Source: a virus. From it: DNA of 64,000 nucleotides. The first letter of the stretch is position 1. Each line of letters opens with the position of its first letter. The notes beneath the pieces were generated by a model, which did no database searches, had not been told where the DNA came from, and saw only the letters and a list, made by a program, of their open reading frames with translations. Of the stretch, positions 6,772-61,827 are shown one piece after another. The position numbers were made by a program, and so were the translations under genes. The DNA is taken from positions 1-64,000 of the IMG/VR virus record IMGVR_UViG_3300033143_004594, one strand, 5' to 3'.

Positions 6772-9700
6772 ATGATACAGATCCACGATAAACAGACAGA
6801 AGCGAACGCGGGCCAAGCGGAACGGGCGACACTTTACCACCGATCCGGGCTTGGCCTTGGTTATAACAAGCGGGAAGTAAAGCGGATCGAATGGGCGCGG
6901 GGTCAATATGCCCAATATGATCAGGCGGTCCGGCTACGCTGGAGAGAACCCCGGCAACGCAAAGATCGCCAAACATGGCTCACTTATAAGCCGGACGCGG
7001 TGATCGTGGCGGGCTGGAATAACCCCGATCCGCCGTCCTCATATAACACAACTAAGGACAAAGACGGAACGATCCAACGCGGGAAATATACCAGTTTCGA
7101 TCCCCGCTTTACTTCCGATTTTCGGTCATGGCTTGCGGACGCGGGCCTCACGGTGATCGCGGACTTTCACAAGGCGGAGACAGGCGATCAGGGGTCGATC
7201 TCCCTTACAGAGATCGCGGAGCGGGGGCGGGCTGAGCGAGAAGCAGAAGCGGAGAAAGCAACGCGGATCGCGTCTGTTATAACGGAAGCAGAACCGGCCG
7301 AACTGGAAGCAGAGACGGAAGCGGGCGATCTTGGGGCTTATGATACGGCGGATAATTGGATCAATCGTTGGGGTGACTTCTACAAAGACACACAACAACA
7401 CAACGCGGAAGCGGCCAAACTGGAAACAGAACCCGATCCCCTTGCTGATTATTCTAACGGGGATCTACTTGGTGATTATTTGGATCTGTGTCCTCATTAT
7501 GATCAATCTGATGAGGATATAACGGAGATCAGGACCGTACTCACGGCGCGGGGCTTCTTATTTGTGGCTCAGGCGGACGGGGGCGGGCCAACAGAGGCGG
7601 AAGTCAAAACCACGGCGGATCGGCTCATCAGGGAAGCAAAAACGGCGGACCGGGCCAACGGACGCGGGCCGGGGTTCGATATATGGACTAAGGCACAAGC
7701 AGCGGCCAAAGCAGAAGCGGCGGAAGCTGAGCAACACGCGGAGACAGAACCCGCGGACCGGGTAAAGATTGAACCGGCCGACGCGGATCGCTTTGAATAT
7801 ATCGAACCCGAACCCGATCCAGTTATGCCAGCGGGCGCGGCGGAGTCAATCACAGGTAAAGAAGTTGGAAAAATGATCCGGCCACGGTTGCGGGCTATCT
7901 TTCCCGGCGTCACGTTCTATGTAAGGACTGATCATAGTTCACTTGATATAAGCTGGATCGACGGGCCAACGGGGGCGGAAGTCAAAAAGATCGCGGGCCA
8001 ATATGACGGCGGCGGCTTCGATGGCATGATCGATCTTGGTTATTGTATTTATCATTGGTTAATGCCAGATGGATCGACGCGGATCGCCTATTCCAGCGGT
8101 ACAGCGGGATCGGGGGGTTCTGTGTCCGCGTTTGGCGGTGACGGGTCAAAGCCTGATCCGGGGGCGCGGTTGGTTAGCTTCCACACGGAATATATAAACT
8201 GTAAACGGGCGCATTCGGCCGACTTCTTAAAGCGGGCGGGGGAGCAAATCAGCGGTGAGTATAATTGGCCTGTGCCAAAGATTGAAGCTAGTACAACATG
8301 GATCTCACACTCCAAAACTATTGACGGCGCGTCATTTGTCCATGATCCGATCAACGCTCCAGCCCCCGCGGATCATTTTCGGGCGGGCGGGTCGCCTTAT
8401 GTCCGATCTTTGGGCGGGGTTTTCGATCACGCGGCTCACGATATAAGCTATTATGAACCGCCAAAAGCAAAGCCGAAAGCTAAGCGGGCCGCGGGCGGGG
8501 CTTCTGTCGATTATGATCCCGCGGAAGCGGTGATCACCTATAGTGAGCGGAACGGCGCGATCTGGACATGGATCGAAACGGTAAAACCCCCGGCCGATGT
8601 GAGGGACGGGCTAACGGGGATCGGCTTCTTTTGGTGGCGGAAGCGGGGCAAATGGGCCGCCAAGCAAGAGATCGCAGAGGACACGATCCGCGCTATACTG
8701 GAAGGGGGATCGGGCGCTCAGGGAGACGGGGACGGGGGCGGAGAAGCTGATCCGCCGTCCTCATCCCCAAGCAAGCCAAAGACTAAGGCCGAACCGGGGA
8801 CAGAACCCGATCAAGCTAAGGCGGAGAAGCTGATCGCCTTGGCGGACTCCTTCGACAAACAGATCCAAAAGAAGCGGGACACGTTCAAAGGGGCTAACCT
8901 CACTCACAGGCGGGCGGAGTTCATAGCGTCCGCAAACTATGACGCGGATCGAATGCAAGAAGCACAAATGATCCTGATCGCCTTGGCGGACCTGTGGACA
9001 GTTGGAAGCGTCCCGGCGCAATTTAGGAAAATGGGAACTAAAAAAACGGCGCTGGAGTTGACTCACAATATCCGGGCGCGGGCTAAGTATGGGGATAAGT
9101 ACCCATCAGACTATAATGATCGTGTTTGGGGGTCATGGGGCGATTATAACGCGGCTCACGCATGGGCGGACCGGGTGATCTCAGGGGTCGATAACACTGA
9201 GCGAGACGCGGAGCGAAAGATCGCCGGGCTGGAGCAAAACGCCAAATTTGCCAAGATCCGCGGGTTTTTCCCCACTCCGCGGGCCGTGGCGGATCTTATG
9301 CTGGAGCATGTGAACCTCACAGAGGGGGATCTTGTTTTAGAACCCTCAGCGGGATCGGGCGCTCTATGCGATATGATCGCGGAATACTTCCCACGCGCCA
9401 CGCTTCACGCGGTCGAAGTGTCTCACATGCTCAGGGAGATCCTCACCTTAAAGGGGCACGAGTTGATCGGCCGGGACATTTACGATCTCGATCCTGTGGA
9501 TAGCATCGGAAAATATGACGCGATCATAATGAATCCCCCATTTGAAAAAATGCAAGACGCCGATCACGTTCGCTTTTGTTATGCGATGTTAAAAAGCGGC
9601 GGAACGCTAGTGAGCGTTATGTCCCCGTCACCCTTCCACAATTCCACTCACGCGGCGGCGGATTTCCGATCATGGTTCGATACATTTGGCGGTGAGAAGT

Positions 9701-9777
9701 TCGATCTCCCCGTTGGCAGCTTCAAAAAGTCCGGGACGGGCGTAAGTTCTTGTTTTATTGTCATCAGCAAAGATTAG
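6772..9777 (+). CDS. Large multidomain (polyvalent-like) protein with a C-terminal gamma-class N6-adenine DNA methyltransferase domain
   Basis: ATG preceded by AAGGAGTAAAGCGAA. The C-terminus has FFPTPRAV (motif X), VLEPSAGSGAL (motif I) and NPPF (motif IV, 9532-9543). The N-terminal ~820 aa has acidic/Ala-rich linkers and globular domains of unknown function. Confidence 0.8.
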   Translation: MIQIHDKQTEANAGQAERATLYHRSGLGLGYNKREVKRIEWARGQYAQYDQAVRLRWREPRQRKDRQTWLTYKPDAVIVAGWNNPDPPSSYNTTKDKDGTIQRGKYTSFDPRFTSDFRSWLADAGLTVIADFHKAETGDQGSISLTEIAERGRAEREAEAEKATRIASVITEAEPAELEAETEAGDLGAYDTADNWINRWGDFYKDTQQHNAEAAKLETEPDPLADYSNGDLLGDYLDLCPHYDQSDEDITEIRTVLTARGFLFVAQADGGGPTEAEVKTTADRLIREAKTADRANGRGPGFDIWTKAQAAAKAEAAEAEQHAETEPADRVKIEPADADRFEYIEPEPDPVMPAGAAESITGKEVGKMIRPRLRAIFPGVTFYVRTDHSSLDISWIDGPTGAEVKKIAGQYDGGGFDGMIDLGYCIYHWLMPDGSTRIAYSSGTAGSGGSVSAFGGDGSKPDPGARLVSFHTEYINCKRAHSADFLKRAGEQISGEYNWPVPKIEASTTWISHSKTIDGASFVHDPINAPAPADHFRAGGSPYVRSLGGVFDHAAHDISYYEPPKAKPKAKRAAGGASVDYDPAEAVITYSERNGAIWTWIETVKPPADVRDGLTGIGFFWWRKRGKWAAKQEIAEDTIRAILEGGSGAQGDGDGGGEADPPSSSPSKPKTKAEPGTEPDQAKAEKLIALADSFDKQIQKKRDTFKGANLTHRRAEFIASANYDADRMQEAQMILIALADLWTVGSVPAQFRKMGTKKTALELTHNIRARAKYGDKYPSDYNDRVWGSWGDYNAAHAWADRVISGVDNTERDAERKIAGLEQNAKFAKIRGFFPTPRAVADLMLEHVNLTEGDLVLEPSAGSGALCDMIAEYFPRATLHAVEVSHMLREILTLKGHELIGRDIYDLDPVDSIGKYDAIIMNPPFEKMQDADHVRFCYAMLKSGGTLVSVMSPSPFHNSTHAAADFRSWFDTFGGEKFDLPVGSFKKSGTGVSSCFIVISKD

Positions 9778-9804: not shown

Positions 9805-10005
9805 ATGTACTATGTATTTTCCTACTATACCAAAAGATACAACGCCAAAGGGGAGATCGTGACCGAGTACGCGCCACGGCTACACACGATCAAAAAGAAT
9901 ATTGAGACGGAAGCGGAAGCACAACAGGCGGTGAGGGATTATGACGCCACTCACAAACGCGGGCCGCTCGGCCGGGTTGCTGGATATGATGACCAAAGAC
10001 GCTAA
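9805..10005 (+). CDS. Hypothetical protein
   Basis: 66-aa ORF in the gene array, with a weak SD (aaagga). Confidence 0.5.
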   Translation: MYYVFSYYTKRYNAKGEIVTEYAPRLHTIKKNIETEAEAQQAVRDYDATHKRGPLGRVAGYDDQRR

Positions 10006-25337: not shown

Positions 25338-25639
25338 TCGGTCCAGATTATGAACAGATACAGGCGAACCCCAACGACTTCATTGATTTTGAATTGGTAA
25401 AACGAAGCAACGTACACAGAATTGCCAGGACCTTTGGTGTTCCCATGAGATACTGGCTCCAAGGCCATAAAAAATATATATTGTGTAGTGAGAAAGATTG
25501 TGGACACTTCGGTCAGCTTCGATGGGCGCTCGATGAGAAAGGCAACTTCATTCCTGACCCGGAACAGTGGGGCTATTATTGTGGTATGCACTATTTTGAA
25601 AAGGTAGAAGTATGGACCAAGAACAACCGTTCGGAATAA
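25334..25639 (+). CDS. Hypothetical protein
   Basis: ATGA overlap with dnaB. 101 aa. Confidence 0.65.
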   Translation: MIGPDYEQIQANPNDFIDFELVKRSNVHRIARTFGVPMRYWLQGHKKYILCSEKDCGHFGQLRWALDEKGNFIPDPEQWGYYCGMHYFEKVEVWTKNNRSE

Positions 25640-27321
25640 TTACGGCCGACGTTGGAGAAGTCGCTGCAGCATGGAAGGGGGAGAAGAAGTTTCACGCGGT
25701 CTTTTGTGACCCGCCCTATGGCCTCGGATCAGTTAAGGACATACGCGGCCTATTGGAAGCATGGTTAGCCGATGCTGAATATGATACCGGGAAAGGGTTC
25801 ATGAACGCTGAGTGGGATGTCATTCCCCCACCGTCTGTATGGCGGGACATCCGGGAAAACATGGTATATCCCGGCGCGGTTCTCTTTGCCTATGGCGGGA
25901 CCCGCACTTCCGATCTCCTGTCGCTTTCTATCCGGCTCGGGGGTTGGGAAAAGTTCGATGAGATCCTGCATTGGTCCTACGGCTCAGGCTATCCAAAGGT
26001 GTATGACATTGGGAAAGCAATTGATAAGGCCGCGGGCGAAGTCCGGGAAATAATAGGTCAAGGGAAAGGGACTTCACTAAAAAAGAGAAATGAACTAAAT
26101 GAAGAACTAGGCTATCGACCTGGGGACTATTACGAGGAAAATGACGGTAGCTTTGATATTACTGCTCCAGCTAGTGAAGATGCCAAAAGTTGGGATGGCT
26201 ATGGCAATCTGTTGAAGCCCGCCCAAGAGCCCATATTGTGCTTTCGTGCGCCATATGATGGGACATACGTGGACAGGGCTCTCACTTATGGCACATCGGC
26301 ACTAAACATTGGCGGGGGTAGGGTATCAGCAAAAGGGGAAACATGGGAAAGAGAACCGAATACTATTAAACCAAATGATAGCATTGGAACATTTAAGACT
26401 GGAGTTCGATCAATGGTACAGAATGAGGGGGGGCGCTGGCCCGCTAATTTAGTCCTTACGCACCTTCCAGGATGTCGGCCGGCGGGGGCGAAGAAAGTCA
26501 GGGCTACCAAACAGCGGGTACAGAAAGACACCAAAACATATGAGTCTAATTCCCGAGCTGGGGATTCGACTCCGCCAGCCGGCCTCGCCACGAGTGGGTA
26601 TGCGGACGACGATGGTTTAGAGACCGTTATCAATTGGGAATGTATGGATGGATGCCCGGTGAAAGAAATGGGCGAACAATCTGGAATATTGAAAAGTGGG
26701 AAGGGCTCGGTCAAGAAAGCAAGTGCGGCCGGGTATTCACCAAACGCCTATGGAAAAGAAAACAGGCCCATAGGGACCAAGATGGTCGAACACGCGGACG
26801 AAGGTACGGCCGCCCGGTATTTTCTGCAAAGCCATTGGGCGCACGAAATCCATGAGCGGATCGCCATGGCACCGGGCGCTTTCTATCAGGCCAAGGTATC
26901 GAAGGCTGAGCGCAACGCCGGGGTTACTGGCGATGGCGGAACAGTCAACGACGGCCGTAAAAAGGAGATCGACAATGCCTACCAACGCGGAAGCACCCGT
27001 AAGAAAAACAATCACCCAACCTTAAAGCCCATCGCCTTAAATAAATGGCTGGCTACGCTGCTTCTTCCAGCCGAGTCGGTAGGCGAACGCCGTCTACTCA
27101 TCCCTTATTCAGGCGCGGGAAGCGAAGCTATAGGAGCTATGTTGGCCGGTTGGGACGCCGGTCTAGGGCTTGAAGGCGGGAAAGATTACGCCAGGATAAG
27201 CCGGGAACGGTTAGAGTTTTGGTGGAACTACTATCGCCACGGCGGAGATGATGTCCGCAAGATTCTCGAAAATTGGAAACCAGAACCTGATGATGGGCCT
27301 AAGCAAGCAAGGATGTTCTAA
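25612..27321 (+). CDS. DNA methyltransferase, beta class (N6-adenine or N4-cytosine), with a large central insert
   Basis: DPPY motif IV at 25708-25719. C-terminal sequence is NHPTLKPIAL...IPYSGAGSE (motif I). Confidence 0.85.
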   Translation: MDQEQPFGIITADVGEVAAAWKGEKKFHAVFCDPPYGLGSVKDIRGLLEAWLADAEYDTGKGFMNAEWDVIPPPSVWRDIRENMVYPGAVLFAYGGTRTSDLLSLSIRLGGWEKFDEILHWSYGSGYPKVYDIGKAIDKAAGEVREIIGQGKGTSLKKRNELNEELGYRPGDYYEENDGSFDITAPASEDAKSWDGYGNLLKPAQEPILCFRAPYDGTYVDRALTYGTSALNIGGGRVSAKGETWEREPNTIKPNDSIGTFKTGVRSMVQNEGGRWPANLVLTHLPGCRPAGAKKVRATKQRVQKDTKTYESNSRAGDSTPPAGLATSGYADDDGLETVINWECMDGCPVKEMGEQSGILKSGKGSVKKASAAGYSPNAYGKENRPIGTKMVEHADEGTAARYFLQSHWAHEIHERIAMAPGAFYQAKVSKAERNAGVTGDGGTVNDGRKKEIDNAYQRGSTRKKNNHPTLKPIALNKWLATLLLPAESVGERRLLIPYSGAGSEAIGAMLAGWDAGLGLEGGKDYARISRERLEFWWNYYRHGGDDVRKILENWKPEPDDGPKQARMF

Positions 27322-27518
27322 TGGATCTAGAAAAATCTAAAATATGGGACGCGCTGAAAGCCTCTGGTTGGAATTATGTCGCTGGAAAAGAAGGTGATTA
27401 CGTTCGCTGCCATTTATGTAAGAAGGTTCTTCGGCCGGATCTACCCAGATTTGTTTCGCCGGACAAAAAGAAATCGTATCATCGGTATTGTATAGCTCAT
27501 CAAAAGCGAAACGAATGA
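27321..27518 (+). CDS. Small zinc-finger-like protein
   Basis: TAATG overlap. Has CHLC...HRYCIAH. Confidence 0.55.
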   Translation: MDLEKSKIWDALKASGWNYVAGKEGDYVRCHLCKKVLRPDLPRFVSPDKKKSYHRYCIAHQKRNE

Positions 27519-29002
27519 TTCATCTGATTAACGGTGACTCCCTGAGCATCCCCCTGGCCGACGAAACGGTCCACTGTATCGCTTTCTCCCCGCCATATTA
27601 TTCGCTCCGGGACTATGGGGTTGAAGGGCAACTCGGCCGAGAGCCGTTACACGATTGTCACGCTTGGGCCATCGGCCGGCCGCCATGTGGAAACTGCTAC
27701 GTGTGCAATATACGCACTGTCATGAAAGAAGTTTGGCGGGTACTACACCCAACCGGCACTGTCTGGATAAACTTGGCCGATAGTTGGGTGCGCGATCCCA
27801 AGAAGGGCATTAAGTACGAGGCCGGGGCCGGCACCTACATGAATAATCGACAGGCTGTCGAGAAAAACGTGGGCGCTCCAGTCCCGCCCGGTTTGAAACC
27901 CAAGGATCTTTATGGCATCCCTTACCGTGTTGCCCTGGCCCTACAAACTGATGGTTGGTATTGGCGGAGCAAACCCCCGTGGATTAAAAAGAACGCCATG
28001 CCATCGTCGGCCAGCGATCGGCCGGGTACATATCATGAGGAAATACTGTTCTTCTCGAAGGCTGAGCGATACTTCTATGACCGGTACTCGGTCCTCAGAC
28101 CCGCTACCCAAGCATCATTAGAGAGATCAAGGCGGGCCGTCCATGATGGGCACAAGAATATCAACGGCGCTCCGGGACAAGTCCCGCACTCGATGGCCCG
28201 CTCCCGGCCGAACGTCAACCGGCACAGCTTCTCGCGCCGTGCGAAGGCTGAGACCATCCACCCGGACCAACAATACAGCCAGCACCGGGACGGCCGAGAA
28301 AACGAGTTCTATGGATTGGACTGGCGAAACTGGCGGACCTCTGACACCTTCTTTGACTCCCTGTCCTTGGTCATCGAGCAGCAAAGGGAATATCTCAGTC
28401 ACCTAGAACAGGTCCTGGCCGCGGGCGGATATTTGGTGGATGAGGAAGGGATGCCATTGGCCTTCCAGGTTAATCCTACCGGCTACGGTGGCAATCATTA
28501 TGCTGTTTGGCCGCGGGCCTTGGTCAAGGACATGCTGAAAGCATCCACTTCCAGACATGGGGCCTGCCCCAGCTGTGGAAACCAGTGGCAACGGGAAATT
28601 GAGAAGGGAGAACCGCAGGCCCGCCATGACAATCCCAACCCGGTCCTTCCATACTCAGCCGACAGCGGCATGAAACACGGCCAAGGGGGTAGCACCCTTC
28701 ATAAGACAGTAGAAATTATGACCAAGGGCTGGACGCCTACTTGCGATTGCAACCGGCCGGATGTTATCCCGCCGGTCGTGCTGGATTGCTTTGTCGGATC
28801 CGGAACCACCATGATAGAAGCCAGGACGCTCGGGCTAACCGGGATCGGGATAGACCTTAAATTTAATAATCTTCTGGTGGACTGTCGCCAGCGGTTGGAC
28901 CTGGACAAATTAGAAGCCTTTGAGCAGGGTAGGGGGGCTGTGGTCCGGCCGCCCAAGAAAGGCCGTAAGAAGCCTAGCCCTAATCAACCTAGTTTATTTT
29001 AG
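27515..29002 (+). CDS. DNA methyltransferase, beta class (SPPY type; N4-cytosine or N6-adenine)
   Basis: ATGA overlap start at 27515. SPPY at 27587-27598. C-terminal sequence is NHYAVWPRAL...VLDCFVGSGTT. Confidence 0.85.
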   Translation: MIHLINGDSLSIPLADETVHCIAFSPPYYSLRDYGVEGQLGREPLHDCHAWAIGRPPCGNCYVCNIRTVMKEVWRVLHPTGTVWINLADSWVRDPKKGIKYEAGAGTYMNNRQAVEKNVGAPVPPGLKPKDLYGIPYRVALALQTDGWYWRSKPPWIKKNAMPSSASDRPGTYHEEILFFSKAERYFYDRYSVLRPATQASLERSRRAVHDGHKNINGAPGQVPHSMARSRPNVNRHSFSRRAKAETIHPDQQYSQHRDGRENEFYGLDWRNWRTSDTFFDSLSLVIEQQREYLSHLEQVLAAGGYLVDEEGMPLAFQVNPTGYGGNHYAVWPRALVKDMLKASTSRHGACPSCGNQWQREIEKGEPQARHDNPNPVLPYSADSGMKHGQGGSTLHKTVEIMTKGWTPTCDCNRPDVIPPVVLDCFVGSGTTMIEARTLGLTGIGIDLKFNNLLVDCRQRLDLDKLEAFEQGRGAVVRPPKKGRKKPSPNQPSLF

Positions 29003-49755: not shown

Positions 49756-51288
49756 TTATTGATTCGGTGACAACAGGTGCAAGACCGTGTTAGGTCCGGC
49801 GTCGGCAGCACCGACAACCCACGCCCTGTTAGCATCAATCTCACTCCAATAAGCCTCGGCATAGCCAGCGTTGGTTCGCTCAACGATCTTTCGCCAGCTA
49901 TTACCGCCGTCAATAGATTCGTGAACCTGACCAAGTGAGGCGGACGTGACAGAAACCCGGATGATCTGGCTATCACCGTTAATGAAACGGATACCGTTTT
50001 TCACAACGGTAAAGCCAGTTCCAAAGTCTTTCACCTGATCCCAATTGCCAGCTTCTCCAGCGAAATCGGGGCTCAGGTAAAGATATTGGTCATTCCCAGC
50101 TGCCAGTGTACCATCAACAGCCTCAGAAATAGCCGTGAAATCTGCACCACCACTCGGGCCGTTGCGAATCTCGAATGTGCCAGTAGCATTACGCTCTCTG
50201 GCAATAAAATTCGTTCCGCCGGCCGCCCAAATGGTTCGCCCATCAGGAGAAGCGGCAAAAGCATTTACCTGGACGCTGCCAGTGAAAACCGGGGCCATGG
50301 TGCCATCTTCGCCCTGCTGATCTTCAACAAAGATTTCAAAGGCATCGGTAGCCAGATACAGGCGGTCATGCTTAGCCCATAGCATCGCGGTGAGAATATC
50401 ACCGACAGCCGTGCCACCGGTCAACGTCTTGGAGGTCCAGGACGAAACCGTTACGAGGTCGCCAAATGTGACATCAGCATACTCGTACTTGGCGAATGCG
50501 GCTGCATCAGTGATGCCCGTGCCAAGAATGACGCGGACAACATTGTCACCGAGCAATCGCAACTGAGCGAAAGCAACGTCCTCATCAATCGCCATCGGGT
50601 CAGTCGAAAAAGATGTGAACGTAGCCCCGCCATCACCAGAAATATAGGCTTTTGGAGCAGCCGAACCGGTTGGGGCTACACCCACAACCATGATCTGGTC
50701 AGCGCCAGGGTAGCCAGTTCCACACTCGTTACAATCCTCATCGGGGATCGCATCAATGGATAGGCCGTCATTGACTTCTGTGCTAACGGTCAGCGATGAC
50801 AGACCGGTGCGGAGCACCAGCACAACGCCGCGGAACATCAGAGAACCGGACGCTTGCATTTGCGTACCATCAAACTCCAGAGACGGGCCGTCTCCAGGGC
50901 TATAAGTGGTCAGTTGACCACGGGACCAGTGATGAAGTTTGTCCCACACGAAAGGATTGTCCAGGACGCCACATTCGACCAATCGAAGCTGCAAATTGAT
51001 CGGGCATTTCCTTTGCCACATTTCTTCAAGAATCGTCTGAGACGCCTTCTCAAAGATGGTGACGGTCAGGGTTGGCAGGTCGCCCGGAGCGGTTTCGTTG
51101 ATGGCGATAACCACCGGCTTACCATTTCGGTCCCTAGCATACACCGGGGCAAGGTTGACAACTGGAATGGACTTCCCGGTCAGGGACATGCCATCTTCGC
51201 CAACGGCGAACGGAAGGAACGCCGTGCCCGATCCACTACTCTGGACCCACGCTACGGCTTCAGATTGCTTAACTACAGTCTCGGCCAT
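49756..51288 (-). CDS. Putative major tail (tube) protein fused to a C-terminal Asp-box beta-propeller-like domain
   Basis: Four genes upstream of the TMP and followed by a terminator. The C-terminal ~330 aa contains SGDGGATFTSF and SIDGGNSWRKI. Confidence 0.45.
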   Translation of the reverse strand: MAETVVKQSEAVAWVQSSGSGTAFLPFAVGEDGMSLTGKSIPVVNLAPVYARDRNGKPVVIAINETAPGDLPTLTVTIFEKASQTILEEMWQRKCPINLQLRLVECGVLDNPFVWDKLHHWSRGQLTTYSPGDGPSLEFDGTQMQASGSLMFRGVVLVLRTGLSSLTVSTEVNDGLSIDAIPDEDCNECGTGYPGADQIMVVGVAPTGSAAPKAYISGDGGATFTSFSTDPMAIDEDVAFAQLRLLGDNVVRVILGTGITDAAAFAKYEYADVTFGDLVTVSSWTSKTLTGGTAVGDILTAMLWAKHDRLYLATDAFEIFVEDQQGEDGTMAPVFTGSVQVNAFAASPDGRTIWAAGGTNFIARERNATGTFEIRNGPSGGADFTAISEAVDGTLAAGNDQYLYLSPDFAGEAGNWDQVKDFGTGFTVVKNGIRFINGDSQIIRVSVTSASLGQVHESIDGGNSWRKIVERTNAGYAEAYWSEIDANRAWVVGAADAGPNTVLHLLSPNQ

Positions 51289-51877: not shown

Positions 51878-52381
51878 TCAGGATTTCAGATCAAGGGCGA
51901 ATTGCCGATCCCCGCCCTGAGCTTCATTAACACCTGCGGTGTTACTCCATAGCTTAACAAACAACGATCCGGTCAACTCAGAGGGTAGATTATAAGCCCG
52001 ATCTGCTACCGGGCCACTTATAACGACCAAATTACCTAACCTGTCATATAGTGGTTGATAAGTGCCATCTGAGCTTGCCGAAACTAGAAAGCCAATGTCG
52101 GCCGCGGTCCAGGTAGCAGGCATATGAAGCAGGCCGGCAAAATTTGGATAAAATCTAAAGATGCCGGACTCAACAAAATCGACCAGCGCCCAATAGGTTG
52201 TCCAGCTTCCGCCTACCCCTGGCTCATCACCGGCCGCAGCCGTATGATCCAGGATGCACACGTAGGTCTCGCCGCCATTAGTGACAGCATCATCGACTAC
52301 GTAATCCGTGGTTACAACCCACGCGCCTCGTAAAGTATTGCCTTCTATAAGGACGTTTCCTACTTCGCTTTCACGGTTCAT
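51878..52381 (-). CDS. Structural protein, paralog A, with an N-terminal CBM5/12-like aromatic module
   Basis: Its C-terminal half is homologous to 52378..52731. The N-terminal sequence WVVTTDYVVDDAVTNGGETYVCILDHT...GGSWTTYW is shared with the collagen-like protein. Confidence 0.6.
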   Translation of the reverse strand: MNRESEVGNVLIEGNTLRGAWVVTTDYVVDDAVTNGGETYVCILDHTAAAGDEPGVGGSWTTYWALVDFVESGIFRFYPNFAGLLHMPATWTAADIGFLVSASSDGTYQPLYDRLGNLVVISGPVADRAYNLPSELTGSLFVKLWSNTAGVNEAQGGDRQFALDLKS

Positions 52382-52731
52382 GTTTTCATGTCCACAATGA
52401 GATCGCGGTCCGCGCCCTGATTCACGCCGGCACCGCCAGATTGACTCCAGAGTTTTACAAACCGGGCTGCCAGAACTTCAACCGGGATAGCATGAGTTTG
52501 GTCAGCGGCCGGACTAGCGATTTCGACAAGAGCGCCAGCGTCATCATAGAGCGGCTGATACGTCCCATCTAACTCGGATGACACCTGGAAGCCGAGATCG
52601 GCAGCGGTCCATACTGCCGGGAAATGGATGAGGCCATAAGCATGATCGTGGTAGCTGACAACCCCTGATAATGCTGTGCCATTAGGAATGGTTGTAGGAT
52701 AAGAATAACTTTGACGTTTTGCTGGCAACAT
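52378..52731 (-). CDS. Structural protein, paralog B
   Basis: TWTAADIGF/VWTAADLGF, YQPLYD and FVKLWS are shared with 51878..52381. Confidence 0.6.
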   Translation of the reverse strand: MLPAKRQSYSYPTTIPNGTALSGVVSYHDHAYGLIHFPAVWTAADLGFQVSSELDGTYQPLYDDAGALVEIASPAADQTHAIPVEVLAARFVKLWSQSGGAGVNQGADRDLIVDMKT

Positions 52732-52732
52732 A

Positions 52733-53923
52733 CTAATACCCTCTCAGAAAAGATGATCGACGGCGGTTCTTTTTCCGCCGGCCGGTCAACAGTCCACCGG
52801 CTGCTACAGGTTGATTAAAATTCGGTCGTTTCAAATATTTGTCTACTAGCCGCTGCACCGTCATTCCAGCTATAGTCGGCCCATATCGTAATCGAGTAGA
52901 AAAGTCAGTGCTGTGGCCAGGATCGAGCTCCAGCATTTCCTTAACAAAAGTTTTGTCACAACCCCTTGGTTTTACAGGTGTCCGGTTGGCATGAACTAGC
53001 GCCAACAAAACGACCGCTTGTTCTAGGCCGGGATCCATGTAGGCCCCGTCGCCAAATACCGTAGCATAATTGATGCGAATTTGCTTTCCCGCGCATGAGC
53101 AAAAATTACCAGTATCACACTCGATACAGACAATGCCTTCCGTCGCATCTTCCAGGGTTAAGGTATAGGTTGAAGAAGCCTCATCACACCCGCATTCCCC
53201 CACCACTTCGTAAGCTAAATCGGCATCTACTTGTCCAGAACGCCACTTTACGGCCGTAATGAAATTGCCTTGCTCAGCTACGGTGTTTTCGGTTTCATCA
53301 ACATCAGGCTTAACCAACTGATACAGAGGCCAGGTCAGGCGATAGCCATCCTCTCCCCCGCCGCATGTTGCTGTAAGACGGTTGACAATCGGAGCTTGTA
53401 GCGTTTGCAATCCCCGGTATACATCTAAAACCGCATCAGGATAAGAGACCTGGGCATCGGTAATTGTTCCCGGTGTCAATTGGCTATCACAAAGGTCTAT
53501 GTAACCCTCGGCTACATCCACGTCCCAATCAATGGTCAAATTGACCTCGGCCCAATCTGTATATACTTGCTGTCCTAAATAAGATACGGGCGCTTGGCGC
53601 AAGCGGATTCTTGTTTTCAGGTCGTGCAATTCGTCAAGATGGGCCTCGGGGCAAAGGGGAGCGCCAAGGTCACGCTTAATCTCAGCATGAGCCGTGCGGA
53701 GTTTATCGATCCAGCCTTCACGCTGGTATACCTTCCACCATACGTCACAGTAGTCCGGGCTCTTTAATCCATAGGCCCCTGTTTTCATGCCCAACATCAG
53801 GAGTTCGAGCGAACGATCATAAGGGACACAGGCGGCCGGTATAGCATCCGGGATTGCGGCCGAAGGTAAGCCACCGCCTATGGGTGTTCCAGTTCCTACG
53901 CCAGGATCGGTATCTTGTGCCAT
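52733..53923 (-). CDS. Hypothetical Cys-rich structural-module protein with a basic C-terminal tail
   Basis: 396 aa. Has a CGCDE...CIECDTGNFCSC cluster and ends GRRKKNRRRSSFLRGY. Confidence 0.65.
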   Translation of the reverse strand: MAQDTDPGVGTGTPIGGGLPSAAIPDAIPAACVPYDRSLELLMLGMKTGAYGLKSPDYCDVWWKVYQREGWIDKLRTAHAEIKRDLGAPLCPEAHLDELHDLKTRIRLRQAPVSYLGQQVYTDWAEVNLTIDWDVDVAEGYIDLCDSQLTPGTITDAQVSYPDAVLDVYRGLQTLQAPIVNRLTATCGGGEDGYRLTWPLYQLVKPDVDETENTVAEQGNFITAVKWRSGQVDADLAYEVVGECGCDEASSTYTLTLEDATEGIVCIECDTGNFCSCAGKQIRINYATVFGDGAYMDPGLEQAVVLLALVHANRTPVKPRGCDKTFVKEMLELDPGHSTDFSTRLRYGPTIAGMTVQRLVDKYLKRPNFNQPVAAGGLLTGRRKKNRRRSSFLRGY

Positions 53924-54498
53924 TACGTAACCACCTCTGTATCAGGATTGTTAAAATCAATCCCGCCTCGTTTACGCCAAATGTACCATGTTCCGGGGTC
54001 TAGCCGAGCATAGTTCCCGTAAGCGTCTCTGGCTTCGCCAAGAGCATTAGTCCAACCAACCCAATAAATATCAGTCCCGGCCGCATCTCGATAGATTTCT
54101 ACCTTAACGCCCTCAATTGGGTTAGATGTTCCTTCATAGTATACGATATATTCAAACTCGACAGAAGTGCCAAGAGGGATATTCTCCAATCCGACGCTGC
54201 CATTAATCCAATCTTGGTCCAGGGAAGCAACCCCCGTATACCGAGCCGATGCGAAGTAGTTGTAAAGGTCAAGATCAGCATTAGGATATTTCCGAAGATA
54301 GGCCCCGACCTTAGACATCTCGGCCGTAGGATTAACGGCTACCGTATCACTGTTCCAAATAACAGTTTCAGCAAGTGTGTCCCGGTCCTGAGCTACTAAG
54401 AAAAACTCAATGTCGGCCAGGGTAAGGCCGGTAGCCGGTTCGCCAGGACCTAACGCCCCGTTAAAAGTAAATCTTGCTGAGATGGTAAGATCAGTCAT
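53923..54498 (-). CDS. Hypothetical beta-sandwich (CarboxypepD_reg-like?) protein
   Basis: 191 aa. VKVEIYRDAAGTDIYWVGWTNALGEA resembles that domain pattern. Confidence 0.5.
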   Translation of the reverse strand: MTDLTISARFTFNGALGPGEPATGLTLADIEFFLVAQDRDTLAETVIWNSDTVAVNPTAEMSKVGAYLRKYPNADLDLYNYFASARYTGVASLDQDWINGSVGLENIPLGTSVEFEYIVYYEGTSNPIEGVKVEIYRDAAGTDIYWVGWTNALGEARDAYGNYARLDPGTWYIWRKRGGIDFNNPDTEVVT

Positions 54499-54500
54499 GA

Positions 54501-55691
54501 TTACACACCCTCGACATATGACCAGCCCCGTTCGGGCTTTTCATGCAAAGAAGAAACGGAAAGATAATTTTGATAAACGTCATCAAACCATTTTTGGAAT
54601 TCCCATTGGACATTTTTCATTAAGTAACGTTCCGCATGGGCCCGGATCTCGGCCGGGTCAAGGTCGCCAACACTTCGAGCCGCTTTGACCATATCATCTA
54701 ACGTATTACATAAAAACCCGGTCCGGCCGTGGATGACAGTCTCCGGGAACACTCCGAAGTTGGTTGTTATTACTGGAGTGCCACAAAGCTGAGCCTCAAC
54801 ATTAACCCCGCCAAAGGCTTCCAGGTATTGGGTTGGAACAAAGACAGCTTTAGCCTTTCCCATTAACTCAGCCCGGAGTTCCGGCCCTGCGAATCCCACA
54901 TACTTACACCAAAATGGGAGAGATTTTAATGGTAGCTCAGGGTCTGTTTGTCCGGCTAGGAACAACTTTCCCCCGACATGACCGACTGTCTGAATAGCCC
55001 AACGAACACCCTTCCTCGGTATGATGCGGCCGATGAACAGGAAGTAATCTTCTTTGTTGGGCTCAAATGGAAAATGTTTTTCCTCGAAATAATTGGGGAT
55101 GACCCGATCATAAACCGCGCCATTAACACTTTTCCACGGGTCTGCACTTCCATAAGTGAAGTTCTGGAGATAGGAACTTTCAAAGGCTCGGAAGCTACAG
55201 TAAGAGCCCCGGTAGCCTATTCCAGGTTCGAGCGTCAAGTAAAGTCCGACAGCATCAGCTATGGGTTTTTGATACCGTCCCTGTGTCAGAAGCAAAAAGT
55301 CACTTGGTCGCTTTCGTTTATTGATGGCCTCACTAGCTTGTTTATAATACTTCACTGTGAGCGAGGTTCTAGGGGCATTAAAATCATGCCTGAATCCACC
55401 AGTGCGGTAGTCATAGCCAATACTAAATCGGTTATCACCATCTCCCCATTGGAAACGAATGTTGCTCAGGGTATGAGTCTCTATGAACTCAGTACACGGC
55501 GCGTCCGATCCTTCCGCGCCATACAAAAAGACCTCATGACCGAGGTCCAAAAGCATTTTGCTGAGTTTCACTATTTTCTGAGTGAAGGCACATCCCATGT
55601 ATCGCTCGGAGACTGGAAGGTGAACCAACCCGAGCAGGTGGAAACGATATTGGCGTTTGACTTTGGTAGCGACAGGAATGTTGAATGTCAA
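54501..55691 (-). CDS. Glycosyltransferase, GT-B fold (GT4/group-1 family)
   Basis: FLFIGRIIPRKG...EAFGGVNVEAQLCGTPVITTNFGVFPETVIHGRTGFL matches the E-x7-E group-1 signature. Confidence 0.8.
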   Translation of the reverse strand: MTFNIPVATKVKRQYRFHLLGLVHLPVSERYMGCAFTQKIVKLSKMLLDLGHEVFLYGAEGSDAPCTEFIETHTLSNIRFQWGDGDNRFSIGYDYRTGGFRHDFNAPRTSLTVKYYKQASEAINKRKRPSDFLLLTQGRYQKPIADAVGLYLTLEPGIGYRGSYCSFRAFESSYLQNFTYGSADPWKSVNGAVYDRVIPNYFEEKHFPFEPNKEDYFLFIGRIIPRKGVRWAIQTVGHVGGKLFLAGQTDPELPLKSLPFWCKYVGFAGPELRAELMGKAKAVFVPTQYLEAFGGVNVEAQLCGTPVITTNFGVFPETVIHGRTGFLCNTLDDMVKAARSVGDLDPAEIRAHAERYLMKNVQWEFQKWFDDVYQNYLSVSSLHEKPERGWSYVEGV

Positions 55692-56218
55692 AGACCCATG
55701 AACTCCTTTACGGCGCTGATAATGCGCCGTGCATACTCTTTTGCCAGATGACCACCATCCCCCGCGGCCGAGATTTGGCCCTTACGTTTCAGGCTTGCGG
55801 CCGTAAGCTCGGGTCGTCTAAATACACAAATAAGGTACACATCTCCAAGCAAAAAGTCAAGATAGGAACGGACTGTCAGGGCCATACGCGGGTCTTTGAA
55901 CCCCACCAAAGGGTATTCTTCTGTCGGCATCATCAGAAGTTCATACATATCCTGTATCTCGGCTGAGCGTAACGCCCCAGCTGCAAGCATCGCCGCCTCT
56001 GCTGGTGGATCATACCAAACCCCGCCGGCCGCCTGAATGATGTCCCTGTTAAATCGAGCACCACGGCCGTTCTCAGTCCGCCAGCCACCGGTCTTAAAAT
56101 CGACCCCGGCCGATCGTAACGAGTCAGCCACGAAAGAAGTGCCCGACCGATGAGCCCCTAAGACAATGTAGGTCTTAGGCGACTCCAACGTGAAATCGTT
56201 CCCCGACAAATATCCCAT
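55688..56218 (-). CDS. Sulfotransferase-like protein
   Basis: YIVLGAHRSGTSFV resembles the 5'-PSB loop. GFKDPR...ICVFRRPELTAAS resembles the 3'-PB region. ATGA overlap with the GT gene. Confidence 0.5.
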   Translation of the reverse strand: MGYLSGNDFTLESPKTYIVLGAHRSGTSFVADSLRSAGVDFKTGGWRTENGRGARFNRDIIQAAGGVWYDPPAEAAMLAAGALRSAEIQDMYELLMMPTEEYPLVGFKDPRMALTVRSYLDFLLGDVYLICVFRRPELTAASLKRKGQISAAGDGGHLAKEYARRIISAVKEFMGL

Positions 56219-56801
56219 AATAACATCTTCCGCGTAAGGTTCTCTCTTTCAGGGTCTCGACCTTTCCCTCACCACCGAGCCATTTATTTAACAATTCCTC
56301 GGTGAAACTATGGGGGTGGCCCTCATTTATTGATGTGTCCAGCCATTCAAATACCCGGATGATTTTTGCAAGTTTCAAAGCGTTTTTGACGATTCGCTTG
56401 GGGTTAGCTGTATGCTGCAAGCAGTTGTAAATCCACGCCTCATCATAAAGAAAATCATCCTGGATGCGCTCAGCCGGCTTTTGTTCAAAAACAATCCCGG
56501 CCTCTCCATATCGCAACTCGACCCAATGAGGGATCTTTAAGGGATCTACTACCTTAGAAAAGCCCAAATTTACACACTTTAGGAGTATACTGGTCGGACC
56601 ACCACCAATATCAATAACGGTCGTGCTAACACCGGTTATGGGGTCTTTCATGTCGATATTATAGGGTGATCGGCCGTCGTGGAAGAACTTTAAGCCCATA
56701 CGGTCAGCATAGACCATCTGCTTTTCTTCTTCTCCATACGTATTAACGCATGTTCCCCACCAGCCAGATTCCCATTCTTGTGCCTTAGACCACTTTGGCA
56801 T
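56175..56801 (-). CDS. Class I SAM-dependent methyltransferase
   Basis: Motif I is VIDIGGGPTS. VVDP follows motif I. The later motif is YNCLQHTANP. Confidence 0.6.
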   Translation of the reverse strand: MPKWSKAQEWESGWWGTCVNTYGEEEKQMVYADRMGLKFFHDGRSPYNIDMKDPITGVSTTVIDIGGGPTSILLKCVNLGFSKVVDPLKIPHWVELRYGEAGIVFEQKPAERIQDDFLYDEAWIYNCLQHTANPKRIVKNALKLAKIIRVFEWLDTSINEGHPHSFTEELLNKWLGGEGKVETLKERTLRGRCYYGIFVGERFHVGVA

Positions 56802-56808
56802 AGTTCTC

Positions 56809-57330
56809 CTACATATTAAGACCAGACGGCATAGCTTTATTTAACGGTCGATCTTCATTAGTTAGATAAACACCATACCATCCAAAAACATTATTTTGAC
56901 TATAGGTTGCATCGACCCAGCTTGGATAACCGCCTGGATCATTGGTTGTTCTCCACCAGACGATAAAACCTTGATTTGAATTCTGGCTTCCTACAGAATA
57001 CTCATTCCCAGAGGTTTTGAAGCCAGCATAATATGTTTTTCCCCTAACAATGTGAATCGGTGAAGATAAAGATACTTCATGCCATCCAACACCCAGACCA
57101 CTAAAGGCAGGTGTTTCCCCAACTAAATCGGCGGCGGCATAACCATCTTCAAGTATATATGCTTTTCCGGCAGCAGAACTGGATCGGGAATACCAATACA
57201 GAGTTCTAGCAATAAAATCGTACTTTACTGGTGAAATACGGGCAACAAATTGTTCGTTCGGTGGAGGGCCAAGGCCAGTAGACGGAGTGCCGATTTTAAT
57301 TCCTAGTTGAAGAATCTCTGTGACCGCCAT
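56809..57330 (-). CDS. Beta-sandwich protein related to the duplicated domain of 34959..35975
   Basis: GKAYILEDGYAAADLVGE...GWHEVSLSSPIHIVRGKTYYAGF follows the same pattern as the YSDN..P..L......WY...L.......G.TYW repeats. Confidence 0.55.
   Translation of the reverse strand: MAVTEILQLGIKIGTPSTGLGPPPNEQFVARISPVKYDFIARTLYWYSRSSSAAGKAYILEDGYAAADLVGETPAFSGLGVGWHEVSLSSPIHIVRGKTYYAGFKTSGNEYSVGSQNSNQGFIVWWRTTNDPGGYPSWVDATYSQNNVFGWYGVYLTNEDRPLNKAMPSGLNM

Positions 57331-61827
<4,497 letters not shown>

Follow-up and report, generated by a model that had tools for sequence, protein, structure and literature searches.

A methyltransferase, sulfotransferase-like and glycosyltransferase cassette next to a threonine-rich phage fibre gene suggests decoration of the particle with a sugar that is methylated and possibly sulfated

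Why would a phage carry three overlapping genes for modification enzymes in the midst of the genes for its own particle? The question is raised by the minus-strand ORFs at 56801-54501 of the window, the 64-kb stretch of viral DNA analysed here, where genes for a class I SAM methyltransferase (MT, 208 aa, 56175..56801), a sulfotransferase-like protein (ST-like, 176 aa, 55688..56218) and a GT-B glycosyltransferase of the Glycos_transf_1 type (GT, 396 aa, 54501..55691) follow one another 3' of a 1498-aa collagen-like gene and its 173-aa partner. The original prediction of three coupled genes was borne out on this strand: the 3' end of the MT gene shares 44 nt with the ST-like gene (56175-56218), which in turn overlaps the GT gene by 4 nt, TTGA (55688-55691). 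The MT gene begins with an ATG preceded by GGAG, the ATG of the ST-like gene is supported by relatives with the same N-terminus (MGYLSG...), and the TTG start of the GT gene has GGAG 10 nt upstream, with the PHROG profile aligning from residue 13 on. A relative with proteins of just 37-50% identity shows the same pattern of overlaps (38 nt and 4 nt), and the gene arrangement is therefore not due to chance. The complete MT/ST/GT trio was found only in the window phage and one divergent relative. The predicted location in the late structural operon, directly 3' of the collagen-like gene and its partner, was found as well, with head-like genes upstream and the operon running on past the cassette into tail genes for a tape-measure-like 1971-aa protein, tail-fibre-like proteins and an M23 peptidase. 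None of the three enzymes has hydrophobic segments, the ST-like protein having no transmembrane segment, and all three are thus probably cytoplasmic. The 64-kb window showed no gene for PAPS synthesis.

The fibre protein (57331..61827, minus strand; Pfam Collagen 1.9e-66) comprises 242 G-X-Y triplets in long arrays that are broken up by globular domains, and its gene also shows tandem repeats at the DNA level. Asp occupies 148 of the X positions. Hydroxyl-bearing residues are enriched in the repeats, with Thr at 113 of the 242 Y positions (47%) and Gln second commonest there (59), while proline accounts for 0.9% of all residues; a CBM5/12-like motif lies at residues 1297-1333 (Pfam CBM_5_12 7e-5). 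Over 44 cassette-linked collagen-like proteins, Thr is the commonest Y-position residue in most; it is present in a median of 46% of triplets, and three quarters of the proteins have 40% or more. Because Thr-rich Y positions are possibly general in bacterial and phage collagen-like proteins, they are not specific evidence of glycosylation. Two small ORFs flank the enzyme genes. The partner ORF (173 aa, 56809..57330, minus strand) has its ATG immediately after the TAA of the collagen gene and weakly resembles DUF4082 (Pfam 1.6e-4, under the cut-off); its homologues occur in the same phage only, and other cassettes have different small ORFs in this place. At the other end, a 191-aa ORF (53923..54498, minus strand) starts 2 nt past the GT stop and may be part of an MT-GT module, given its homologues 3' of the MT-GT pair in four other viral loci (L091, L110, L111 and L160; phmmer E 1e-14 to 4e-22).

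The GT gene is linked to the G-X-Y repeat gene, lying three genes 3' of the fibre in the same operon. When the three ORFs were run against Pfam, GT came out above threshold, with 66.4 bits for PF00534 Glycos_transf_1 (cut-off 26.4, E 2.9e-18) and 61.1 bits for PF13692 (cut-off 27, E 1.8e-16); MT and the 176-aa protein had no match of their own, and their relatives did. Residues 13-377 of GT also matched phrog_3408 (3.2e-79). The E-x7-E signature on which the GT4-type assignment had been based is present as E291-AFGGVNV-E299 in the C-terminal nucleotide-sugar-binding domain, where it aligns with the matching region of 7fg9, the best PDB match (3.5e-22); BGluT (5zer) was matched too. As 7fg9 is a UDP-Glc alpha-1,2-glucosyltransferase (PMC9909042), GT is, judged by its nearest solved relatives, probably a retaining enzyme using a UDP-sugar donor such as UDP-glucose. 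A tblastn search with GT against 50,697 phage records returned 51 Synechococcus phage records and three of 'Bacteriophage sp.' (unannotated, from human faecal samples), and none of a mycobacteriophage.

An overlapping cassette of this kind 3' of a Thr-rich fibre gene suggests that the phage modifies its own particle with a sugar that is methylated and possibly sulfated, which no phage is known to do. In the reading we prefer, and hold tentatively as a little short of an even call, the late cassette would act in the cytoplasm and glycosylate a virion protein, the fibre threonines being the likeliest site, after which the sugar would be methylated and sulfated. The soluble GT-B enzyme would transfer a hexose onto the Y-position Thr of the G-X-T repeats; MT, the obligatory partner of GT and in other phages joined to it in one protein, would add a methyl group to that hexose; and the 176-aa protein, encoded between the two, would act as a minimal sulfotransferase that transfers sulfate from host PAPS onto the same glycan. 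The 44-nt and 4-nt overlaps would provide for co-translation of MT, ST-like and GT with the fibre. We infer the fibre threonines as acceptor and the donor sugar, like every substrate in this scheme, from the gene neighbourhood; methyl and sulfate would presumably sit on the sugar rather than on the protein, and the modification might serve, for example, to stabilise a proline-poor triple helix, to confer charge, or in adhesion or shielding, which the original prediction had put forward along with mimicry.

How this cassette is distributed among other viruses bears on the choice of target. The MT-GT pair is a mobile module that often lies beside a G-X-Thr collagen-like gene. Among 80 viral loci of the MT family, 42 have a collagen-like ORF within five genes, upstream in 36 cases, and an adjacent GT of the same family is likewise present in 36 of the 80; in the 83 ST-family loci that served as control, three have a nearby collagen-like ORF (Fisher p = 3e-13). 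MT-GT fusions occur in both domain orders (L136, L142, L143 and L158). The cultured Synechococcus phages ACG-2014f and S-CAM7 carry the MT-GT pair near a collagen-like gene, the order in the cyanomyovirus ACG-2014f being collagen - small ORF - MT - GT, and the cyanophage cassette has a 2OG-Fe(II) oxygenase where the ST gene sits in the window phage. With the module conserved across many phages, the link to the collagen fibre is stronger than the sequence alone could reveal. The claim that a combined glycosylation, sulfation and methylation set would be new can be kept in part: it is plausible, and we found no published report of phage virion sulfation, but the MT-GT-collagen module already exists in cultured cyanophages, where it went unremarked, and its parts are less unique than implied.

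Could the cassette instead remodel a glycan of the host envelope (LPS, EPS, capsule or S-layer) during infection and so, for instance, prevent superinfection or the adherence of progeny phage to debris? Closeness to the fibre genes would then just mirror a hypervariable host-recognition region. Both this target and this account of the location seem unlikely to us, even though they correspond to the usual reading of GTs in the tail-fibre hypervariable regions of cyano- and pelagimyophages (PMC7029224). Neighbours of ST-family genes such as GT25, GT11, GT2 and a nucleotide-sugar epimerase are typical of LPS/O-antigen loci, and about half of the MT-family loci are without a nearby collagen-like gene, six of them having GT-MT beside a dCMP deaminase instead. 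However, the window encodes three soluble enzymes with no adjacent flippase, polymerase or other membrane component, their genes are translationally coupled within a late virion operon, and MT-GT and collagen-like genes are found together far more often than chance would allow. Moreover, seroconversion cassettes usually reside in lysogeny modules, and no such module was seen nearby.

A virion target leaves the question of whether methyl and sulfate would be attached to sugar or to protein. By its motif I and its AlphaFold (AF2) model, the 208-aa protein is a class I SAM-dependent methyltransferase with a predicted seven-stranded Rossmann-like fold, in line with the original prediction from VIDIGGGP at residue 62. 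The window MT itself matches no Pfam family at E <= 0.1; it matches phrog_3603 (3.1e-46), and 21 of 31 relatives match Methyltransf_11/23 (best 1.6e-8). Motif I (D/E-x-G-x-G-x-G, SAM binding) reads V62-IDIGGGP-69, and in the 31 relatives D64 and G66 are invariant and G67, G68 and P69 at least 90% conserved. Foldseek searches with the AF2 model (pLDDT 91.3) returned 612 PDB chains at E <= 0.001, the best 50 of which have the class I methyltransferase fold with probability 1.0. The top match is the protein N-terminal methyltransferase NTM1, as would fit a direct modification of the fibre protein, in which ST-like would be a Tyr (or Ser/Thr) protein sulfotransferase and/or MT a protein methyltransferase, the latter acting on the N-terminus, on Lys or on Gln of G-x-Q triplets, and GT alone would add sugar. 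The fibre has 22 Tyr as well as Gln at 59 of 242 Y positions, and tyrosylprotein sulfotransferases (TPSTs) rank next after 2z6v among the solved ST relatives, with the KDP motif aligned and TPST2 among the top folds. We nevertheless consider direct modification improbable, as we do the methylation sites it would entail. Foldseek rank among class I methyltransferases is not discriminating, and NodS and EvdMO1, which act on sugars, also score high; a recognised GT adjoins the ST-family gene, at most six genes away, in at least 60 of 83 loci; and the common MT-GT fusions fit sugar tailoring best, as in PBCV-1 A064R (PMC9614988).

Tailoring of a sugar would include sulfation if the 176-aa protein is an active sulfotransferase. 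Its assignment as sulfotransferase-like stood as far as the motifs are concerned, with HRSGTS at 23, KDPR at 108 and RRPELTAAS at 134, but the protein is shortened and divergent and on its own stays under the Pfam gathering threshold, with no Pfam or NCBIfam match. The 5'-phosphosulfate-binding (PSB) loop (x-[RK]-[ST]-G-[ST]-[ST], after strand 1), located at Y17-IVLGAHRSGTSF-29 with G21-AHRSGTS-28, aligns with GMPRSGTT (GxPRSGTT) of 2z6v, which we take to be a sulfotransferase, and of TPSTs. The 3'-phosphate-binding motif (R-x7-S), F133-RRPELTAAS-142, aligns with R-D-x6-S of TPST1/2 and 2z6v, and K108 with the KDP lysine of tick and human TPSTs, the catalytic residue (K158 in TPST2). Since the solved relatives include tyrosylprotein sulfotransferases, the acceptor of the ST-like protein could be protein and not sugar. 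In an alignment of 46 diverse family sequences, G106 and K108 are invariant, and G21, T27, S28, D109, P110, R134 and S142 are at least 90% conserved. R24 and G26 of the PSB loop are substituted in the more distant members of the family. Profile searches of the PDB with the family matched 2z6v (3.1e-4) and TPSTs (0.013-0.13) with the three motifs collinear, the best eight matches all being sulfotransferases. Thirteen of 32 relatives match Sulfotransfer_3 (best 2e-4) and five match Stf0, and L050, a family member of greater length, scores 40.2 bits against the Sulfotransfer_3 gathering cut-off of 27 over profile positions 2-213 of 216. With the AF2 model of the window protein (pLDDT 91.9), the top Foldseek matches, 4gox and 3ap1, were weak (E 5e-3), with a TM of 0.52-0.55 normalised to the query and about 0.35 normalised to the sulfotransferase targets, and P-loop kinases (TM about 0.4) and GPN GTPases were closely interleaved with sulfotransferases in the ranking. 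The possibility of a kinase or other P-loop fold, raised in the original prediction, was checked in this way; the Walker A motif GxxxxGK[S/T] is absent from the ST-like protein, its loop GAHRSGTS having no lysine, and sulfotransferases are the best fold and profile matches. These matches, weak as they are, point toward sulfotransferases rather than kinases, and we refer to the protein as a putative sulfotransferase, a shortened and divergent relative of the Sulfotransfer_3/TPST/Stf type.

Given its 176 aa vs roughly 220-300 aa for a full-length sulfotransferase domain and 250-300 aa for the characterised enzymes, the C-terminal third being missing (~100 aa), the protein might be inactive as a sulfotransferase, whether as a relic that binds nucleotides, as a small enzyme of the kinase kind or as an accessory or adaptor subunit of MT or GT, and the glycan would then be methylated only. 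The low target-normalised TM, the missing Pfam and NCBIfam match, the interleaved kinases and GTPases and the replacement of R24 and G26 in the more distant family members are all consistent with this. Standing against it are the loop, which is of the sulfotransferase type (xRSGTS) and not a Walker A, the purely sulfotransferase top eight PDB profiles with collinear motifs, and the nearly full-length Sulfotransfer_3 match of L050. In addition, K108, R134 and S142 are invariant or nearly so across a family of ~19,000 clusters, implying selection for catalysis, and we give loss of activity only a small chance.

The family to which the ST-like protein belongs is very large and unannotated (19,266 clusters) and mostly phage-borne or viral, with a single match in 185,579 species genomes. 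Nucleotide-sugar epimerase and major capsid or portal genes are found as neighbours at other loci, ST-MT fusion proteins exist and an ST-GT fusion is possible. Overall the family is not collagen-linked, the three such loci among 83 all belonging to trio phages. It may be that phages possess their own family of ~170-aa minimal PAPS sulfotransferases that sulfate virion glycans, inserted here into an MT-GT module for Thr-rich fibres, a generalisation that we find possible and somewhat doubtful.

Hypermodification of DNA, with GT adding sugar to a modified phage base and MT and ST-like tailoring it against restriction, is highly improbable, for although a 7fg9-like GT has been proposed as second-sugar transferase in DNA hypermodification of Rhizobium phage RL38J1 (PMC13326640), 7fg9 is the best PDB match of the window GT, six MT-GT loci adjoin a dCMP deaminase and the window phage is rich in DNA methyltransferases, the cassette lies in the virion operon on the strand opposite to the replication and DNA-methylase genes, has no adjacent base hydroxylase, hydroxymethylase or nucleotide kinase, and has a collagen-like structural gene as its recurring partner.

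Decoration of the particle remains our preferred reading. If the wider reading, with a phage family of minimal sulfotransferases acting on virion glycans, is true, a sulfated glycoprotein made on a phage particle by phage enzymes only, within the cytoplasm of the bacterium, would be a new kind of post-translational modification of virions, and thousands of unannotated viral genes would gain a function. To our knowledge, phage enzymes have so far been shown to glycosylate virions in some mycobacteriophages only, where this alters antibody recognition; the MT-GT module, the mini-sulfotransferase family and their combination at this locus suggest that such glycosylation is much wider and chemically richer. 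Confirmation would offer an explanation for the stabilisation or functionalisation of G-X-T collagen-like fibres that are poor in proline, would extend the known modifications of phage particles to sulfation, and would bear on phage adhesion to polysaccharide matrices or mucus, on receptor recognition and on the immunogenicity of therapeutic phages.

Several known systems share parts of this scheme. Capsid and tail-tube glycosylation in mycobacteriophages (Freeman 2023, cited in PMC12619734 and PMC11256854) is, as far as these citing papers describe it, attributed to phage GTs encoded among virion genes and thought to O-glycosylate virion proteins in the cytoplasm, as proposed here, with C-termini of capsid and tail-tube proteins as targets, whereas in the window phage the target is likely the collagen-like fibre. 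The mycobacteriophage GTs are, by the tblastn search of 50,697 phage records, non-homologous to the window GT. We know of no sulfotransferase in that system. The MT-GT pair and its fusions resemble A064R and A061L of chlorovirus PBCV-1, where class I SAM methyltransferases, as fusions with viral GT domains or as their partners, O-methylate the terminal sugar of the capsid glycan; A064R, of the make-up GT-GT-MT, produces methylated capsid glycans (PMC9614988). PBCV-1, however, is a eukaryotic virus with N-linked glycans on its major capsid protein, GT-A type and novel GT domains, and neither sulfation nor a collagen-like substrate. For collagen-like acceptors, precedents are the short O-glycans on the collagen regions of BclA (PMC12357932) and the glucosylation of a collagen-like protein by mimivirus L230 (PMC9614988). 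In BclA and mimivirus L230/L71, as may hold for the window with its linked fibre and GT genes, a G-X-Y surface fibre is glycosylated by enzymes encoded nearby or in the same genome. The O-glycans of BclA are attached to GxT triplets rich in Thr, and one of their sugars, anthrose, is O-methylated. Unlike the window fibre, BclA is a bacterial spore protein, and L230 is a lysyl hydroxylase-GT fusion that acts on hydroxylysine; both systems are without a sulfotransferase.

The nearest sulfotransferases are enzymes of the Sulfotransfer_3/Stf/TPST type (2z6v, 1tex, 3ap1, 4gox), which provide the best fold matches and share with the ST-like protein the collinear xRSGTS loop, KDP lysine and R-x7-S motif, whereas the window protein is ~100 aa shorter and belongs to a separate, mostly viral family below the Pfam gathering score. 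Bacterial enzymes of this type act together with methylation and glycosylation in pathways for sulfated glycolipids, such as mycobacterial sulfolipids, glycopeptidolipids and rhizobial Nod factors (NodH/NodS). Phage-borne genes of the Sulfotransfer_3 type have also been described as 'auxiliary metabolic genes' in viromes and in genomes of Synechococcus phage S-SRM01 and OM43 phages, their function being called unclear (PMC10580990). Whereas those are isolated metabolic genes, the window gene forms part of a GT/MT cassette within a virion operon, and its translational coupling there would give it a concrete role.

The cassette lies in an unbroken run of minus-strand genes that extends from the collagen-like gene, coding for a 1498-aa fibre protein (61827..57331), to a 191-aa ORF (54498..53923), with more ORFs beyond. 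Between these two follow, all on the minus strand, a 173-aa partner ORF (57330..56809), whose ATG stands straight after the TAA stop of the collagen-like gene, a 208-aa methyltransferase (MT; 56801..56175) with a GGAG 7 nt ahead of its ATG, a 176-aa sulfotransferase-like protein (ST; 56218..55688) and a 396-aa glycosyltransferase (GT; 55691..54501). The MT and ST genes overlap by 44 nt. Between ST and GT, the overlap is 4 nt long (TTGA), the TTG start of GT being preceded by a GGAG at a distance of 10 nt, and the GT stop is separated by 2 nt from the start of the 191-aa gene. The start of the ST ORF is backed by the same MGYLSG... N-terminus in its relatives. These coordinates and junctions bear out the original prediction of three tightly joined modification genes at this place in the late operon, and the motifs it had quoted for the enzymes were all found in the proteins. 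Downstream of the cassette, the operon encodes an M23 peptidase, proteins resembling tail fibres and a tape-measure-like protein of 1971 aa. On a sister contig reaching beyond the window end, two ORFs lie upstream, one of 398 aa that is protease/scaffold-like and one of 527 aa. Judging from gene order and an acidic C-terminal tail, the 527-aa ORF is probably the capsid protein; more generally, we infer the identity of the upstream head genes from gene order and the scaffold-like acidic tail. Within the window, Pfam and PHROGs (phage protein families) identified no major capsid protein. Given these flanking genes, the cassette appears to sit between the head and tail genes. A nucleotide search with the cassette region found no match among 50,697 phage records. 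The partner ORF was rejected as a module member, because its homologues are confined to the same phage.

Further ORFs in this part of the window were also inspected. Two paralogues of 117 and 167 aa (51878-52731, minus strand) have a common C-terminal domain, and the 167-aa protein shares a CBM5/12-type carbohydrate-binding motif with the collagen-like protein (57331-61827, minus strand; residues 1297-1333), a motif that is also present in phage tail-fibre PHROGs. A 510-aa ORF (49756-51288, minus strand) located between the tape-measure gene and the fibre region has no family match; its C-terminal half contains a BNR/Asp-box-like motif, SIDGGNSW, and the product could be a decoration or tail tube protein that includes a propeller-like domain. 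Antisense ORFs of up to 695 aa opposite the collagen-like gene, among them 58117-60204 (plus strand), were dismissed as by-products of the tandem DNA repeats in that gene (periods 33-351 nt) and of its G-X-Y codon periodicity.

GT matched Pfam Glycos_transf_1 (66.4 bits; cut-off 26.4) and phrog_3408 (3.2e-79), and contains an E291-x7-E299 motif. Its closest solved relative is the structure 7fg9 (3.5e-22), a Thermosynechococcus UDP-glucose alpha-1,2-glucosyltransferase (PMC9909042). For both MT and ST, single-sequence searches of Pfam, NCBIfam and the PDB returned nothing significant, and family-level profiles were required. MT belongs to phrog_3603 (3.1e-46); a homologue search returned 549 relatives, and Methyltransf_11 or Methyltransf_23 was matched by 21 of 31 sampled, with no Pfam match for the MT sequence itself. 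When its AlphaFold model (pLDDT 91.3) was compared with the PDB by Foldseek, 612 chains were retrieved at E <= 0.001, the top-ranked matches all having the class I methyltransferase fold (NTM1, NodS, Coq5, EvdMO1 and others), and D64 and G66 of motif I are invariant. Hydrophobic segments are absent in all three enzymes, which are therefore probably cytoplasmic.

The neighbourhood of MT was analyzed in 80 loci, including one from the cyanophage ACG-2014f. A GT of the same family was adjacent in 36 of them, and a collagen-like ORF, defined by at least 15 G-X-Y triplets, lay within five genes in 42, upstream in 36 of these 42. For 29 of the 59 MT loci having at least five upstream genes on the contig, a collagen-like ORF was located in that upstream span. 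As a control, we used 83 ST-family loci (80 IMG/VR viral contigs and three contigs fetched by exact protein match), of which only three, all from phages with the complete trio, had a collagen-like ORF nearby; the difference (Fisher p = 3e-13) is indicative only, related contigs being non-independent. Single polypeptides combining MT and GT also exist, with either domain first (L136, L142, L143, L158), and L134 combines MT with a DXD-type GT and a methyltransferase of the FkbM type. The cultured Synechococcus cyanomyovirus ACG-2014f (L084, NC_047712.1, 4726-10214) shows the order collagen triple helix repeat protein, 140-aa ORF, MT (43% identity), GT (40% identity), 2OG-Fe(II) oxygenase and tail fibre; S-CAM7 also has the GT. 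The ACG-2014f collagen protein is richer in proline (22% of X positions), and its locus suggests that prolyl or lysyl residues are hydroxylated there, where the window has a sulfotransferase instead. In most cassette-linked collagen-like proteins, Thr is the commonest Y-position residue, with a median of 46% of triplets; three quarters of these proteins reach 40% or more. Of the 242 triplets in the window protein, 113 have Thr at Y and 148 have Asp at X, and proline accounts for just 0.9% of its residues. Gly-Pro-Thr peptides, as in Riftia cuticle collagen, are reported to form a stable triple helix only with galactosylated Thr, a behaviour suggesting, as a lead rather than a test, that glycosylation may stabilise the proline-poor fibre. 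For glycosyltransferases in the fibre regions of cyanophages and pelagiphages, the usual reading is that they remodel a host envelope glycan (PMC7029224); we consider this rather unlikely here, as the enzymes are soluble, their genes are coupled inside the late operon and the module is linked to collagen-like genes.

Regarding ST, 13 of 32 close relatives matched Pfam Sulfotransfer_3 and 5 of 32 the Stf0 family, and L050, a longer member of the family encoded on a viral contig, scored above the Sulfotransfer_3 gathering threshold (40.2 bits vs 27) in an alignment spanning positions 2-213 of the 216-position profile. The eight best PDB matches of a 46-sequence ST profile were all sulfotransferases, counting as one 2z6v (3.1e-4), whose PDB entry is titled 'putative uncharacterized protein'; tick tyrosylprotein sulfotransferase (TPST) scored 0.013 and human TPST1/2 0.06-0.13. 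Profile and matches share collinear motif pairs (GMHRSGTS/GxPRSGTT, KDP/KDP and R-x7-S/R-D-x6-S), and in the 46-sequence alignment G106 and K108 are invariant, while conservation reaches 90% or more at G21, T27, S28, E49, N57, W105, D109, P110, R111, R134 and S142. The AlphaFold model (pLDDT 91.9) found sulfotransferases as best fold matches (4gox and the TPST2 structure 3ap1, probability 0.99-1.0), with weak E-values (5e-3) and P-loop kinases interleaved. A kinase was rejected, because ST lacks the Walker A lysine and has conserved sulfotransferase motifs; the sulfotransferase-like call of the original prediction holds. From sequence and model, we conclude that ST is probably a shortened, divergent member of the sulfotransferase superfamily in which the motifs for PAPS binding and catalysis are retained; that it is inactive or not a sulfotransferase seems improbable. 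The TPST-like matches of ST, together with the NTM1-like match of MT, would also fit direct sulfation or methylation of a protein, a reading to which we assign a low probability. A motif scan of the window in all six frames for PAPS synthesis genes detected no APS-kinase-type P-loop.

The ST family is very large: at E <= 1e-3, a 32-sequence profile matches 19,266 representative clusters, of which 7,008 also pass E <= 1e-10, and most members are 155-190 aa long. In species-representative genomes and in cultured phages, the family is hardly found: in 185,579 species genomes, close relatives occurred on one contig of a Woesebacteria MAG; against cultured phages, tblastn with ST gave no match and a more central family member matched Pseudomonas phage Y4 only, and weakly. 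ST thus has no cultured model. In at least 60 of the 83 ST-family loci, a recognised glycosyltransferase (GT2, Anp1-like GT-A, GT25 or GT11) lay within six genes, and 18 loci had a methyltransferase nearby; other neighbours were SU10-type or phrog_10 capsid genes, portal genes and a nucleotide-sugar epimerase. ST is fused to a class I methyltransferase in P0290, by PDB search match, and in P0286, as judged by eye, and to a GT-B-like C-terminus in P0289 (weak match). PDB searches with P0195, P0228 and P0289 were uninformative, the methyltransferase match coming from P0290 only. According to these neighbours and fusions, the family belongs to phage glycan-building neighbourhoods. Arrangement of ST between MT and GT was seen only in this phage, with its identical contigs, and in one divergent relative, known from two IMG/VR contigs (loci L008/L009 and L096/L098; identity 49% for MT, 37% for ST, 50% for GT and about 50% for the collagen protein), which keeps the overlap pattern (38 nt and 4 nt). 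Because the MT 3' end overlaps the GT start directly in relatives without ST, ST looks like an insertion that kept translational coupling.

Several family members have other architectures and surroundings. By eye, the giant proteins P0195, P0212 and P0228 (1,094-1,692 aa) each contain two mini-sulfotransferase domain copies, with a third, canonical-looking GTPKTGTT loop in P0195 and P0228 and a GT2-like domain at the end of P0212 and P0228; for the domain calls in P0195 and P0228, PDB search gave nothing. In several unrelated phages (L014, L019, L035, L038), an SU10-type major capsid gene is followed, two genes later, by an ST-like gene, a layout resembling capsid-adjacent glycosylation genes; an Anp1-like GT-A of about 460 aa follows directly in L035 and L038, and four genes further on in L014. 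The sister contig (L166, 1046-1906, beyond the window end) encodes, about 6 kb upstream of the collagen gene, a 286-aa protein homologous to a family of about 210 aa and unknown function, which is found within three genes of an ST-like gene, often adjacent, in eight other viral loci (e.g. L054-L056, L073, L074, L076).

The best-supported reading is a three-step assembly of a virion glycan. GT would O-glycosylate a virion protein in the cytoplasm, the likeliest acceptors being Thr residues of the G-X-T fibre, MT would methylate that sugar, and ST would sulfate it with host PAPS. Gene anatomy, enzyme families, motif conservation, genomic linkage and fusions are established; we infer the acceptor, the donor sugar, the methyl and sulfate positions and the biological role. 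DNA hypermodification, proposed for a 7fg9-like GT in phage RL38J1 (PMC13326640) and in keeping with a dCMP deaminase adjoining six MT-GT loci, is highly improbable for the cassette. In these six loci (L144, L148, L150, L151, L156, L159), the GT-MT pair, at about position 10000 in full-length loci and nearer the start in L144 and L148, is reversed and has the deaminase directly after it, and no collagen-like gene is present in the locus, such that the module may have another target in those phages. The window phage itself invests heavily in DNA methylation for one phage, with three large plus-strand proteins matching DNA methyltransferase PHROGs (6772-9777, 25612-27321 and 27488-29002), one of them a multidomain 1001-aa protein; a DnaB-like helicase is also encoded on the plus strand.

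We found no literature report of phage-encoded virion sulfation; sulfotransferases and sulfated glycans go unmentioned in a 2022 review of giant-virus glycans, and a 2023 paper calls the function of phage sulfotransferases unclear (PMC10580990). The MT-GT-collagen module appears to be annotated but undiscussed in cyanophages. The two general patterns behind this locus are unreported; virus-encoded virion glycosylation is already known. Mycobacteriophage capsid and tail-tube proteins are glycosylated, according to work cited in PMC12619734. As further precedents for the proposed pathway, O-glycans occur on the collagen regions of BclA (PMC12357932), mimivirus L230 glucosylates a collagen-like protein, and PBCV-1 A064R is a GT-GT-MT enzyme of methylated capsid glycans (both PMC9614988).
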